Shown: one piece after another, positions 18,001 to 26,495 of the stretch
Numbering within the stretch: the first letter of the stretch is position 1
Layout: every line of letters begins with the position of its first letter
Origin: Calditrichaceae bacterium
Lineage (GTDB): Bacteria > Calditrichota > Calditrichia > Calditrichales > JBFXGD01
Direction of reading: 5' to 3'
Assembly (NCBI GenBank): GCA_050173015.1
Contig: JBFXLE010000038.1
Location: 1 to 26,495 of the forward strand
DNA: 26,495 bases
Program-made: the position numbers

Positions 18001-21000
18001 CTTTTCAGAAGGGGTTTTTATATAATCAAAACCCAACCGTTCAGCCAATAATCTGGCGGTGGTGGTTTTACCGCTTCCGTCTATGCCTTCTATGGCGAGA
18101 AGTAATTTTTCAGTCAATTGAGTTTTCCTCCGTCTCTTAACCCGTGAACAAGTAATTTTGTGTCAAACACACTTTTATTCGGAATAAAATTATCTCTGCG
18201 CACTCCGCATGGCTGGATACCTTCCCCGGATATACGGATTGACGCTCTGCACCCCTCGTTGCATTTTGATCTTAAGGCACAGGCATGATTCGCGCATAAA
18301 TTCGCTTCGCGGCTGATTTTGATCTTGAGCTGGCCTAAACCTACCGGGATCATATAGTAAACATATTCTTCATTTTTTTTCTCCGAAAGCCGGTACCCCT
18401 GTTTTTCAAGAAAATCGATCAGTTGGGACATTGGCTTGAACATGCCGGCAGGACCACCCTCAAGAAGATCAAAAAACTTCCAGGTGAGGCCTTTTCTTAC
18501 ACATGTAAAATCGATTATATCATCAATTTCATCGAAATTGAGTCCTGAATAGATGCAATTTACTCCGGTTCTTAATCCGCAGGTCAGAGCATATTCCACC
18601 GAATTAACAACGTGCTCAAACAATTGTTTACCGTTGGAAACACCGCTGTAATAAAGATATCGCTCCGGTTTCAGTGTATTCAGACTGATATTGACTTCAC
18701 TCAGCCCCGCGTTTACGAGACGATCATATAATCTGACCGACCCTGTTGTTCCATTGGTCGTTAATCCTATATTTTTAAAACCTGCCCGCCGGATCCCCTT
18801 TATCAAATGTGTCAGTGTGTCTGTCGGCATCAAGGTGGGTTCACCTGCCGAAGAAATCTGTACGGGAGTATGTGATTCATAATACGCGCTCAGGATGTTA
18901 ACCTGTTCAAGAATTACATTTACCTGAGAAAACGGATTATCATAGACGCAATTCACCACGGGCATCATATCGTTATGACACCAAACGCAATTCAGATTGC
19001 ATCGCGCGCCGTGTTCGTTCATTTTGAATTTGGGATAAAGCTCTATTCGCAGTTTCGCGTTCATTGATTTACTCCTCATTTTATCACTCAATTAATAAAG
19101 AGGAGAAATCAGCGGGCTTTTTTAAATTTTTTCAGATATTTTTTGAATTTTTTCGAATATATTTTTAATGACGGCTAAATCGGATAAAAGAGGTTTTTCG
19201 TATTCTTTCTTTACCCGGTGACGTGTACGGGAAAGACCGGCTAAATCCGTTTCGCTGATATTGATGTCCGGATAAAGATGACGAAATATTTTTCTGAAAG
19301 TCGCGTGCGGCTGATCGCTCAAAGCCAGGCCATATGTACTTAGTTTTAGCTCCAGAAGCCTGAAAACAGCGTCATAATAGGCTAAAAACCTGACCCGTTC
19401 ATCCGGATGTTCAAATTTTTGCCTTAATTGTTTCAAACTGCGGGTATTGCTTGCCCTCGCCTGCAGCGGGTCACATTTCTTTAATAACCCTTTTTGCTCA
19501 AAATTTTGTAAAAAGTTTATCATTTAAAAATGAACCGTTTCCTTTAATTTTCCCCAATTTCCCGATTTTATGTCCTTCACATCGGGCAGAATCAAATTGT
19601 ATCCCGGCATCGCTGTTTGGCACTGTCTGACAATTTCTGACATTTCGTAATCAGTTAGTATAAACATGCTGTTTCCGCCGGACCGCTCAACGGCCTCCAG
19701 TTTAACAAGAATCATGGATATCATTGGAGAACCCGTTCCGAAAATCCACTTTCTGGCCAACTTGATCAGCTTATCTCTCTTTTGCGCGTTTTTATCGTGT
19801 AAGCTGGCGCCAAAAGCCGCAATTATGCCGCTGTGAACACGAAACTGCCGCGGATTTTCCAATCGTCCGGAGTTTTCCAGCTTTGTTAAAATCTCTCTCA
19901 AAGTCTCGGTTGAACCGGAAAAATAGGCCGTATAACATTTATAATAGTCATTAAAGAAGATTTGCTCCGTTTGTTCATCCCTTGTCTCATGGACAGCCTT
20001 CTTTAGCAAAAGATGGGCCTGCGCGTAATTACCCGCGATCGTCTCATTGTGTGCCATATAGCAGTACAACCGGGCCATGGCATCATATTCTCCACTCTTT
20101 TCCGCTATTTTTTCCGATGCTTCATAACAGGCGCGGGCTTCATCATTTCTGTTCCACCTGGCGTACAATTGCCCGAGACTGTTCCGGGTAGTAATATATT
20201 TATAATCGGGATAATGATGCCGTTCCAGCATATGCAGAGATTGTGTGAAGATATTTTCCGCCGCCTGGTAAGCGAACTGATCGGTAAGCCAGACGCCGTA
20301 TTTATTAAAAACTTCATAAATATCAACAGCGGGATCATGGTTATGTCCAAGATCCCGGACAATATCATAAGCCTCTCTGAAATATTCCCCGGCTTTGTCG
20401 CCGCGTCCCTCATGGGTATATTGCAACCCGAGTTCACCTAAAACATACGCGTATCTGGATCGTACAGAGGGTTTTGTGGAATCCCGGTACTGTTCGCGAA
20501 ACCGGTCCAGTATATCTTTTGCCGTTCGATTATCCTGAATCTGCAAAAAATATTTCAATTCCAGAAGTTCTCTGTCAATGTTCATTCTGATGGATTTCAC
20601 TTTTCGTTCAAAAAATTGCTCCCCCCAAAGCAACTTTACCACTTCGTCCAGATTCGCACAAAAAACATGCCGGCTATCATCCTGTTTATTATTATCAATC
20701 TGTGGATCAGCGCATAGAAAAATACGTTTGATAAACGGATGATTTTTTCGGACTGCATCCGTTTTTTCAACAATATGATCGACCGCCGAGAGTTTGCCAT
20801 GATGATCAACACGGGCGGAAAACGCGGCATCTCCCGGAATCGGCTGTTTTAACTGTTTTGAAATTAATATGACCGCGGCGGCAAGACCGATGGACGCTCC
20901 GCTGAAATGAAGCACATGTTGCCGGAATCCTTTTATCCTCGCCGGTTTCAGATAATAACGGGGTAATTCAAACGCCCATCCCTGTCGGAAAAAATATCGC

Positions 21001-24000: not shown

Positions 24001-26495
24001 TTTTTTGTGCTGAAGATTCTTTTTGGGAGTCATTCATTCCTCCATGAATTATTTACCGGCGGTGATCCCGACCAAACGATTTTAGCGTCATGTATGTATC
24101 GTATTATAATCATAAATATAATTCAAAGCAATCGGGTAAACATATCGTCACTACCGGTAAGCAATTTCAATTCAACGGTTCACAAAAATTTATTCTATAA
24201 CAGGCGCCGATTTCCAGTCTTTGTAAACATGGAGGTCCATTTCAATGAGTTTCAGACAAAGACCGAGCACCGCGGCGTCATCGAGATAACCCAGGAAAGG
24301 GATAAAATCCGGTATCAAATCAACCGGCATCAAAATATAAAGCAGTGTAAAAATGATGGCGCCGATCGCTTTTTTGGGGATTTTACGATACGAACCGTTC
24401 CAGTAATCACGCACCAGATTGAGCAAAATCTCAATATCCTTCACAAAGCGTTTGAGATGTTCACTCTCCAAAACCTTTTTTAGGATATTTTCGGAGTTCG
24501 ACACCACATTATTAATATCCTCGTCGTTAATCTGTTCCGCGTTCTCTTTGATATAATCCGGGTTGATTTTTTTTAGATTTTCTTTAAAAGAATTTTTCAT
24601 CTTCAACTCCCTTAACTTTTGGATTGTTGGAATTTTGATAAGCTCCTATGAAAGTGAACTTATCCTGTTTATTATTTAAAGAGAAGAGATTCAGGAAGTT
24701 TTTTAAATTCTTCAAAAAAAAGACAAAAGAAGTAAGAGCGTTAAGAGAAAAGAGTTATAAGTAGGGAAAGAAAGTAAGAAGTAGGAAGTAGGAAGTAGGA
24801 ATTTAAAAGCGTTAGAGAAAAGAGTTAAGAGTTAAGTGTGGGGACGGACCGAATGCAGTTAACCACCGTAAACCGTAAATGTCATCCCGGAGGGATCTTC
24901 TGCTTTCTTGGGAAATGAAGAAAAATAAGAAGTAAGAAGTAGGAAGTAAGAATTAAAGGACGTTAAGAGAAAAGAGTTAAGAGTTAAGAGTAGGGACGGA
25001 CCGAATGCAGTTAACCGCGAAAATTTGATTCCCCAATCCCGAAGGGATGACATTTTTGTAGAAAAACGGACTCCGCAACATTCCGCGACCCCGTCGGGGT
25101 CGAACAATGACACCGGGATTCCCTGTTCTACAAAGCCGCGACACCTCCGGCGGCAGGTGGAGTTAAGAAAAAGACGAAAACGGTCTGAACTTTGATTAAG
25201 ATGATTAAGAAACCGGAAATCAGAGTTTTCAATTAATCAGACGAATCATAGTTCAGACAAGTAAGAATTTAAAAGCGTTAAGAGAAAAGAGTTAAGAGTG
25301 TATGAGTAGGGACGGACTGAATGCAGTTAACCACCGTAAACCGTAAATGTCATCCCGGAGGGATCTTCTGCTTTCTTGGGAAATGAAGAAAAATAAGAAG
25401 TAAGAAGTAGGAAGTAAGAATTAAAGGACGTTAAGAGAAAAGAGTTAAGAGTTAAGTGTAGGGACGGACCGAATGCAGTTAACCGCGAAAATTTGATTCC
25501 CCAATCCCGAAGGGATGACATTTTTGTAGAAAAACAAACCCCTCAACTGACCCTCCCCTCGATCCCCTCCCGCCTGAGGCGGGCAGGCTTCATAACGGGG
25601 GGGAACACAGCTATTAGCTATCGGCTATTGGCTATTGGCTATTGGCTCTCCAAACTGAAATTTTATCCTATAACCCTGCAATCTTGATTCTAAAATCTCT
25701 CACAAAGACACAAAGCTTTAGCGATTCCTCCTGGCTGACGGCGGGAACACAGCTATTAGCTATCGGCTGTTAGCTATCGGCTTTTCGATCGGAAATTCTT
25801 CCCTAAAAATCGACAGAACTCTAAACTGCTCATTGGCCTGGCCGGGAAAAAGCTCAACATTTCCCGCTCTTTCTTAGCCGACGGCTGACAGCTGATAGCC
25901 GACAGCCATCTGGCTCTCGGCTGTTGGCTATTGGCTTTTCTAGCCGGAAAATCTTCCCTAAAAATCGAAAGACTTCTAAACTGCTCATTGGCCTGACCGG
26001 GAAAAAGCTCAACATTTCCCGCTCTTTCTTTGCCGACGGCCGATAGCTGATAGCCGACAGCCGCTCCCGTCTCAATCCCCTATGAATAACGGGGGGAAAC
26101 ACAGCCATTAGCTCTCGGCTGTTGGCTATTGGCTTTTCTAGCCGGAAAATCTTCCCTAAAAATCGAAAGACTTCTAAACTGCTCATTGGCCTGACCGGGA
26201 AAAAGCTCAACATTTCCCGCTCTTTCTTTGCCGACGGCCGATAGCTGATAGCCGACAGCGATCTGGCTCCCGGCTATTGGCTCTCCAAACTGAAATTTTA
26301 TCCTATAACCCTGCAATCTTGATTCTAAAATCTCTCACAAAGACACAAAGCTCTCGCGATTCTTCCTAGCCGACGGCCGATAGCTGATAGCCGACAGCCG
26401 CTCCCGTCTCAATCCCCTATGAATAACGGGGGGAAACACAGCCATTAGCTCTCGGCTGTTGGCTATTGGCTTTTCTAGCCGGAAAATCTTCCCTA

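Follow-up and report, generated by a model that had tools for sequence, protein, structure and literature searches.

A P-S-T-Lon operon from a Calditrichaceae bacterium: a likely relative, independent of CRISPR, of the CalpL-CalpT-CalpS alarm switch

[quoted passage not shown] Passages from the papers that describe it give CalpT a MazF-like domain, a flexible alanine loop and an Ig fold (10.1101/2021.12.06.471393), and place the cut within LAAA, yielding a C-degron (10.1101/2024.05.08.593097). Of 1113 type III loci, no more than 17 were found to carry the cascade, according to an excerpt of PMC11229360, and it is described as strictly tied to cA4. In the type III-E Craspase, made of Csx29 (TPR-CHAT), Csx30 and CASP-sigma, sections of PMC10028731 describe a TPR-fused protease, an anti-sigma factor that can be cleaved, and a sigma factor with binding motifs within its own locus. 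In the DdvA-DdvS system of Myxococcus xanthus, an ECF sigma factor drives a defence island as well as the promoter of its own gene, according to parts of PMC11506125.

The operon considered here lies in the window, by which we mean the whole stretch of 26,495 nucleotides that was analysed, and looks like a CRISPR-independent relative of the first of these switches. It combines a probable sigma factor and its probable inhibitor with a protease whose sensor is swappable and with a protein that has the fold of a toxin-like RNase. An earlier note on this DNA had proposed a four-gene operon. This is borne out by four minus-strand reading frames, neighbours overlapping by 11, 4 and 26 nt. Gene P (23539-24033) encodes a 164-aa PemK/MazF-fold protein, a candidate RNase effector; gene S (22476-23549), a divergent, enlarged ECF-sigma-like protein of 357 aa; gene T (21286-22479), a CalpT-like predicted anti-sigma factor of 397 aa; and gene L (19524-21311), an ATPase-less Lon (S16) protease of 595 aa that carries TPRs. 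For S, the gene list starts at an ATG further upstream and gives 379 aa; it is the 357-aa start that is preceded by the ribosome-binding site and that agrees with the KSB1 orthologue in an alignment. An artefact of assembly does not account for the layout, because overlapping contigs from a second study's run span 13158-24793, one of them running from cas10 to a radical SAM gene downstream of the operon.

That L is a Lon protease was found again by profile (1xhk, E 6e-18; CalpL 7qda, E 5.5e-7), its alignment profile matches Lon structures with E 1.6e-19, and the Ser140-Lys183 dyad is invariant in 8 of 8 rows. L is thus like CalpL, as passages of 10.1101/2024.05.08.593097 and 10.1101/2021.12.06.471393 present it, an ATPase-less Lon with a Ser-Lys dyad; a domain search gave no match to an AAA+ module. 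Short N-terminal helices are followed by the protease domain (about residues 56-235) and by TPRs (about 286-480; TPR_12, E 1.8e-14; TPR_MalT, E 4e-10). The absence of SAVED holds as well. The C-terminal part is TPR, and SAVED-Lon models cover residues 135-191 only (PADLOC CRISPR-Lon, E 2.7e-5), which implies neither cA4 sensing nor a ring nuclease here, unlike in CalpL. No CARF was found in L, nor did a CHAT cysteine protease domain match, its protease domain being Lon. We infer that L is "TPR-gated." The TPRs are not a fixed part of the system, since in three of the five lineages described below an RNase HIII domain stands in their place, a further difference from CalpL. No published Lon-TPR or Lon-RNase HIII cassettes of this kind were found in the literature.

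T, the adjacent substrate candidate, has at the level of folds all three parts that passages on CalpT describe: a MazF-like domain, an Ala-rich linker and an Ig-like C-domain. In its model (pLDDT 86.4), helices at residues 7-82 precede a MazF fold at 88-203, helices at 219-247, a disordered linker at 277-294 and an Ig-like beta-sandwich at 298-392. The earlier match to MazF was reproduced (profile E 1.2e-3; model Z 11.6, rmsd 2.5 over 104 residues), and the C-domain matches Ig-like folds with Z up to 7.9. Such a fold is generic; 8B0U is not among the best 50 structure rows for T, and DUF2080 matched none of the 47 family members. Neither TPR nor CHAT matched in T, whose three-part model is that of a soluble protein, with no membrane helix evident by eye. 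One homologue, P0032, is itself fused to CHAT.

The linker holds L279-A280-A281-S282-A283 (codons at 21629-21643, minus strand), a cut site predicted from sequence and by analogy to CalpT. A cut after A281 would be predicted to leave an ssrA-like LAA C-terminus, in keeping with the LAA degron logic in the passages on CalpT, and clpX is found in the genome. The motif noted earlier recurs as [LIV]-A-A in 9 of 9 close homologues. More widely, 25 of 39 homologues have hydrophobic-Ala-[Ala/Ser] at 40-60 residues after a conserved Tyr, where shuffles would lead one to expect 2.8, the linker window and the motif having been selected after the sequences were inspected. The weak match to DdvA also came back (profile E 0.054), and suggests a likeness to DdvA-DdvS in the zinc anti-sigma domain. 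The HxxxCxxC zinc anti-sigma motif is present in 16 of the 47 homologues, and zf-HC2 in 4. This extra N-terminal helical or zinc anti-sigma domain sets T apart from CalpT. DdvA itself sits in the membrane and carries a periplasmic TPR-CHAT in the same chain, whereas here protease and anti-sigma are separate proteins, neither of them with an evident membrane helix.

A sigma-like gene adjoins T, as in the CalpL-CalpT-CalpS passages, but S is far longer than a typical ECF sigma. It consists of a region-2-like N-terminus, a middle part of about 100 residues and a helix-turn-helix-like C-terminus whose putative region-4 helix-turn-helix carries a 14-residue insertion. The earlier note had aligned S with sigma regions 2 and 4. 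The first of these matches stood, the best 8 of 48161 chains all being sigma factors (residues 1-107/140) at Z 5.1-5.9, values that common helical folds also reach; the structural match to region 4 was not recovered. The structure model is poor (pLDDT 48.7, C-terminal half below 50), and an Atlas structure search gave nothing above TM 0.28. No sigma family in Pfam or NCBIfam matches the window's S, and a profile of distant S proteins missed it at E 10 in a search of its genome; over 167 KSB1 genomes at E 1e-12, the same kind of profile matched none, missing even locus L004. Identity to distant S proteins is only 12-15% (hhalign E 7e-4, probability 26%), yet the alignment is full-length and collinear with proteins carrying Sigma70_r4. 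Those distant counterparts match Sigma70_r4 and TIGR02937, and 6 of 10 rows of positional counterparts match sigma70-ECF (best E 1.4e-9). To name the window's S a sigma factor is thus a weak call. The assignment of an anti-sigma/sigma pair is indirectly favoured by the zinc motifs, by the sigma70-ECF counterparts and by a promoter motif, and is weakened by the window's S.

P had been left without assignment. It is a PemK/MazF-fold protein and a conserved operon member, a fourth gene that the CalpL-CalpT-CalpS cascade does not have. An Atlas structure search matched P to PF02452 (TM 0.57, a score above the naming bar; feature match 0.91), a profile of five distant first genes ranks P first among the genome's 9878 ORFs (E 0.004; the next, 0.54), and the counterpart in L032 matches PF02452 (E 1.7e-4). 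A profile of P matched no solved structure, and one genome among the 86 of the phylum. P65, P80 and T82 are invariant in 7 of 7 rows; judged by eye, Arg64-Pro65 and Pro80-Gly-Thr82 occupy the MazF catalytic-motif positions, residue roles being assigned by analogy with MazF. Four distant lineages appear to carry His instead of Arg. The fold of the MazF/PemK type II toxins is, then, common to P and to the middle domain of T. Here, however, no MazE-like gene precedes P (the window has no small antitoxin gene directly upstream, only a 156-nt gap to a DUF1232 gene; in L033 the gap is 94 nt), and T lacks the Arg-Pro motif and has extra domains.

The occurrence in 2 of 86 genomes of the phylum, claimed earlier, was reproduced, and so was the four-gene order of a KSB1 genome, where ClpA- and HerA-like genes lie next to it. 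The order P-S-T-Lon is found in five lineages (the window, L004, the clade L025-L031, L032 and L033), whose T proteins are about 23-35% identical. Fifteen loci with a T homologue were read (the window, G038, L004, L015 and L025-L035), the distant ones chosen by one subfamily's pattern and therefore a biased sample. Lon directly follows T in 13 of these and an S-like gene precedes T in 14; L015 lacks a Lon next to its S and T, in L035 P-T-Lon stands without an S immediately upstream, and in L028/L029 a shortened S is joined to the beginning of P by an in-frame deletion. Neighbouring defence genes include Hma, a type I restriction subunit, a CBASS-type cyclase and HerA. The T profile gave six matches over the 86 phylum genomes. 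The window, G038 and three more were read; L015 is the S-T pair, L016 proved to be a plain MazF, and L018 an ordinary zinc anti-sigma. Over 167 KSB1 genomes the profile found the genome of L004 and five short matches, which by length (open frames of 126-180 aa, unread) were taken as ordinary MazF toxins. Word-indexed homologue searches were nearly empty (Lon domain, 1 match; T, 3; S, 3), and relatives of T were found neither in plasmids nor among 22 candidates from viral contigs, nor in metagenomes by the close-family pattern (0 of 191).

An ECF-type promoter motif, TGGAAA-N16-GTTnnT, precedes the operon in L027-L033 (three lineages), and a second copy stands before a ubiquitin-like/E2-like/JAB-E1 operon in L027-L031; 0-0.07 per locus are expected by chance. 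The motif was chosen after the sequences had been inspected; the second copy alone is out of sample, and a single clade supplies it. Neither the window nor L015 nor L035 has the motif, and L004 lacks its strict form. The top matrix match within the KSB1 locus of 14.5 kb lies about 60 nt before P. In the window, no -10-like site ahead of P ranks higher than 270 of 52954, sigma-70 promoters occur at the chance count (21 against 20.6), and pairwise scores gave no motif common to its intergenic regions and the KSB1 upstream region beyond what shuffles gave.

Our preferred reading, to which we give roughly 65%, is a ligand-gated protease that cuts an anti-sigma factor, which ClpXP then removes, so that the sigma factor induces a defence response independently of CRISPR. 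At rest, the N-terminal helices and the MazF fold of T would together hold S, a step suggested by CalpT and by the zinc anti-sigma motifs in homologues. A ligand, most likely a protein or peptide, would bind the TPRs and activate the ATP-independent Lon domain. Lon would cut within the disordered linker of T, with the bond after L279-A-A281 as the likeliest site, to expose the LAA degron, and ClpXP would degrade the fragment and free S. S might then transcribe its own operon and neighbouring genes, as the promoter motif of distant relatives would suggest. P, in the least certain step, may be a co-induced effector RNase that slows growth. The switch would be self-contained, and defence is probably its purpose. 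The CalpL-CalpT-CalpS-like reading of the earlier note gains in its SAVED-less architecture and in a CRISPR-independence that now rests on five lineages instead of two; it loses in the weakness of the window's S and the replaceability of the TPRs.

Four co-directional genes (17051-19523, minus strand) follow the Lon stop with a 0-nt gap: a 133-aa protein, radical SAM, dTMP-kinase-like and GreA-like. They are kept in the sister genome G038 at 78% nucleotide identity; in the KSB1 genome, a search with radical SAM gave no match. They are a possible local output, outside the conserved core. The 133-aa protein is HEPN-like by eye, but PF05168 did not match, and the radical SAM protein scores well under the threshold for viperin (27 against 180 bits). 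A type III-D block lies 555 nt behind the GreA-like gene, a neighbour only, with cas genes and a CARF-RelE (Cami1-like) effector (7357-16495, minus strand; PADLOC, Pfam and NCBIfam matches), a 540-aa Cas10 with GGDD, and, beyond the cas genes, a 21-repeat array (about 4180-5735).

This neighbour invites the reading that the operon is a Craspase-like arm of III-D, its TPRs docking on the Cas complex and target-RNA binding activating Lon. The operon and cas10 share a strand and lie about 3 kb apart, a part of gRAMP is matched by the 749-aa Cas7, and TPR-CHAT operates so in type III-E, according to a portion of PMC10028731. It is very unlikely, nonetheless. Four unrelated genes stand in between, and III-D has its own CARF-RelE effector. 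The incomplete assemblies of G038 (94% complete, 320 contigs) and of the KSB1 genome G086 gave no match to Cas10 or RAMP, although both hold the cassette with TPRs, and none of 13 related loci has a CRISPR array. Since type III effector genes were not found in two related genomes, III-D is probably not required for the switch; the window does have a Cas10, but the link to it is not constant as in CalpL-CalpT-CalpS. Craspase also differs in its cysteine CHAT, where L is a serine Lon; in its Cas7-11, where the neighbouring locus is a multi-subunit III-D with Cas10; in its substrate, where T has a MazF fold; and in its CRISPR link, which is not constant here.

Lon might instead cut T while S has, in this lineage, decayed to a non-sigma DNA-binding or scaffold protein; the output would then be non-transcriptional, such as the release of P from T, its pseudo-MazF partner. 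The lack of a sigma family match and of the promoter motif in the window, the insertion in S and the missing antitoxin gene would all fit. We hold this unlikely, because the top 8 structural matches are sigma factors, the alignment with Sigma70_r4 proteins is collinear, a -10-like box is retained before P in the KSB1 locus, and G038 retains S at 80% identity. Slightly less likely still than a III-D arm is the reading first put forward for CalpT, by which Lon would release T as a latent MazF-type RNase, with S a bystander regulator. Arg/Lys stands at the catalytic position in 42 of 47 T homologues, and Ser is present in 39 of them, but no more than 2 of the 47 retain the Pro of the Arg-Pro motif; cleaved CalpT had no RNase activity on the RNAs tested, according to an excerpt of 10.1101/2021.12.06.471393; and the zinc motifs and the constant sigma-like neighbour also speak against it.

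What is newly added here is the fold of P, the gene order in five lineages, the sensor swap, and the promoter-like motif in three lineages. A broader reading, which we offer tentatively and at less than even odds, makes P-S-T-Lon a widespread CRISPR-independent defence chassis with plug-in protease sensors (protein ligands being read by TPR, RNA:DNA hybrids by RNase HIII and cA4 by SAVED), CalpL-CalpT-CalpS being its CRISPR-captured offshoot. One cut in T would then have two outputs, an enlarged ECF sigma that turns on defence operons nearby and an antitoxin-less PemK-fold RNase.

The system offers a predicted cut site and, in relatives, a predicted promoter and target operon. Natural, interchangeable sensors on one ATP-independent protease would be of use for engineered biosensors. 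A sensor-swapped, CRISPR-free relative that retains the protease, the cleavable anti-sigma factor and the sigma factor would explain where the CalpL-CalpT-CalpS cascade came from, and would reveal it as a module with which bacteria generally turn alarm into transcription.

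The four genes of the cassette lie on the minus strand of the window, with overlaps of 11, 4 and 26 nt: P (23539..24033, 164 aa), S (22476..23549, 357 aa), T (21286..22479, 397 aa) and L (19524..21311, 595 aa). The earlier note had read them as a four-gene operon that includes an ATPase-less Lon protease fused to TPRs and a CalpT-like protein with an Ala-Ala linker motif among its close homologues, and the analysis of the individual proteins bears out this description. Directly behind the stop of L (gap 0) come genes for a 133-aa unknown, a radical SAM protein, a dTMP-kinase-like protein and a GreA-like protein (17051-19523). 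At 555 nt beyond this four-gene block the type III-D cas genes begin, whose Cas10 has GGDD; they come with a CARF-RelE effector and are followed by a 21-repeat array. Overlapping contigs of a second study span 13158-24793, and the layout is therefore real.

The 17051-19523 block, kept in a sister genome, is possibly a nucleotide-modifying defence module. Its dTMP-kinase-like gene matches PADLOC PDC-M51B (E 5e-21); the 133-aa protein looks HEPN-like by eye, but has no Pfam match, and viperin was ruled out by cut-off for the radical SAM gene. Elsewhere in the window, dispersed repeat families (1500-4200, 7070-7360 and 24700-26495) comprise GCTATCAGC/GCCGACAGC hairpin units and AAGTAAG heptads, accompanied by truncated CRISPR repeats; many copies occur in the sister genome too. 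Contig C17 carries another array, in which the repeat occurs 19 times.

Judged by its sequence, L combines an ATP-independent Lon protease with TPRs. A profile of its protease part, made from an 8-row alignment, finds Lon structures (E 1.6e-19) and CalpL (5.5e-7); all 8 rows share Ser140 and Lys183. The PADLOC CRISPR-Lon and SAVED-Lon models reach residues 135-191 only (E 2.7e-5); TPRs follow from about residue 289 (Pfam; TPR_12 E 1.8e-14), and AAA, SAVED and CARF have no match in L. Within the TPRs, at residues about 341-380 (20172-20288, 117 nt), a near-identical strain from sequencing run X2 differs at 20 places listed. Contigs of that run over the cassette differ from the window by 1.7-2.3%, against 0.3% from cas10 to the radical SAM gene; in the L gene, 12 of the changed codons are synonymous and 8 are not, among the 40 of 159 differences listed. 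The pattern resembles that of a stretch exchanged by recombination within the sensor.

For T, 50 proteins matched at E up to 0.001 among 1.84 billion representatives. The model of T, made from 47 rows (pLDDT 86.4), predicts the layout of CalpT. Helices (7-82) lead into a MazF fold (88-203; Z 11.6 and rmsd 2.5 across 104 residues); more helices (219-247) and a linker of low confidence (277-294) come next, and an Ig-like sandwich (298-392) with Z of up to 7.9 comes last. CalpT itself is described as having a MazF-like half and an Ig-fold domain, together with a flexible loop in which Ala is at P1 (10.1101/2021.12.06.471393), and a cut within its LAAA exposes a ClpXP-type degron (10.1101/2024.05.08.593097). 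The linker of T holds [LIV]-A-A in all nine close homologues. Of the 47 rows, 39 had the length needed for scoring; in 25 of these hydrophobic-Ala-[Ala/Ser] stands 40-60 residues after a conserved Tyr, a range chosen post hoc (2.8 from shuffles), and strict [LIVM]AA does so in 14 (1.1 from shuffles). Within their first 90 residues, 16 of the 47 have the zinc anti-sigma motif HxxxCxxC, the window's own T not among them; Pfam zf-HC2 matches four. In some members of the family the MazF-like domain is fused to zf-HC2 and CHAT (P0032, 748 aa), to DUF1822 (P0021, 641 aa) or to many TPRs (P0025, 979 aa), or has an internal zf-HC2 (P0045, 508 aa).

P, left unassigned by the earlier note, is the second PemK/MazF fold of the cassette. 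Its Atlas model matches PF02452 with TM 0.57, above the naming bar, and a profile built from five distant first genes only ranks P top among 9878 genome ORFs (E 0.004; next 0.54). No antitoxin-sized gene lies upstream of P.

How general is this arrangement? We read 15 loci with T homologues: the window, the sister genome, a KSB1 locus (L004), a same-phylum locus (L015) and 11 metagenome loci, the last being 11 of 29 candidates from a distant-subfamily pattern, with seven in one clade (82-100% nucleotide identity). T is followed by a Lon gene in 13, the exceptions being L034, which stops before that point, and L015, which has none; ahead of T there is an S-like gene in all except L035. P is intact in eight, at a contig edge in one, truncated and fused in two, beyond the contig in three and absent from L015. 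The full P-S-T-Lon order, noted before in a KSB1 genome, stands in five lineages. In three of these (the clade L025-L031, L032 and L033) the sensor is swapped, Lon being fused to RNase HIII instead of TPRs, above the rnhC cut-off in 3/3 tested, and a separate gene with TPRs and a cold-shock domain follows (L027:5918-9625, L030:11196-14903, L032:10951-14572, L033:3859-7451). Lon-RNase HIII is a candidate RNA:DNA-hybrid-gated protease. Neighbours of the cassettes include Hma, a type I restriction subunit, a CBASS-type cyclase and HerA.

Individual loci show further variation. In L028 (3105-4178) and L029, an in-frame deletion has produced a fusion in which the PemK-like gene supplies the start and a shortened sigma-like gene the rest. 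The GC-rich L035 (2353-6516) has a 346-aa gene with the C-terminal domain of T upstream of P-T-Lon; no recognised sigma gene is adjacent, and the contig ends within its Lon gene. The KSB1 cassette is immediately preceded (L004:978-7914) by a block of co-directional genes for a zinc-ribbon membrane protein, a ClpA-like ATPase, a HerA-like ATPase and a 380-aa unknown.

A promoter-like motif supports a sigma role in relatives. TGGAAA-N16-GTTnnT, first seen by eye in upstream regions, precedes P in three lineages; its GGAA...GTT shape is that of ECF promoters. Scanning placed one copy upstream of the operon in every locus from L027 to L033. In L027-L031 it also turned up a further copy that had not been sought, some 110 nt ahead of an operon behind the cassette (L030:15246-17401; also L027:9946, L028:9415); 0-0.07 are expected per locus. 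L028 and L029, with their P-S fusion, still hold T, Lon-RNase HIII and both copies. The second operon encodes ubiquitin-like (93 aa), E2-like (127 aa) and JAB-E1 (464 aa) proteins, the first two named by eye and E1 from family matches; it is a candidate target of the cassette's sigma factor. Of the 16 sequences scanned, the remaining 9, the window included, lack the motif. In the 14.5-kb KSB1 locus, the best match of a site matrix, at a site first noticed by eye, lies about 60 nt before P, via the -10 box alone; the window has no such matrix site.

Here, we infer every step of the most likely reading, to which we give a probability of about 0.65. The TPRs would bind a ligand and activate the Lon domain, which would cut T after L279-A-A281; ClpXP (clpX is found in the genome) would degrade the N-fragment, and the freed S would induce the operon and its neighbours, P adding an RNase output. 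The weak link is S. It has no match in the sigma families of Pfam and NCBIfam, its model is poor (pLDDT 48.7), and a profile of its distant counterparts did not retrieve it among the ORFs of the genome. Those counterparts match Sigma70_r4 (E 9e-9) and sigma70-ECF (6 of 10 rows), and S aligns with them collinearly, if weakly (hhalign E 7e-4; identity 12-15%). The earlier sigma call is reproduced for region 2, where sigma factors take each of the top 8 places among 48161 chains at Z 5.1-5.9, values that can be chance, but its region-4 match was not reproduced. That S is a decayed sigma factor, leaving P as the main output, is unlikely.

The neighbouring cas genes might suggest a Craspase-like arm of the III-D system, which we consider quite improbable. 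A cOA effector is already encoded in the III-D locus. At 78-80% identity, the sister genome has S-T-L as well as, on a different contig, the radical SAM-kinase-GreA block. The proposed occurrence away from CRISPR is supported there and in the KSB1 genome, with no match to Cas10 or RAMP, both assemblies being incomplete and controls matching in 5/14; none of 13 related loci showed an array. Probably the cassette and the III-D locus are linked by their shared place in a defence region, though S could transcribe the cas genes. Slightly less probable again is that T, with its MazF fold, is a latent toxin: the MazF Arg is kept in 37 of 47 rows and the following Pro in two, a pattern more in keeping with a scaffold than with an RNase.

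The literature searches listed no paper on the cassette, and neither "TPR-Lon" nor "Lon-TPR" appears among the matches listed, although subscription papers (e.g. the journal version on CalpL) could list such loci. CalpT and Csx30 are named in a survey of protease-effector modules from 2025, whose main text has no TPR or MazF passage; its supplements could list such loci (10.1101/2025.11.14.688446). CalpL-T-S carries SAVED on its protease, absent from L, and a constant type III link, not found for the cassette. Because of these two differences the cassette stands outside that system as a non-member, while it would work like it. The T-family MazF-like domain seems to partner several protease types.
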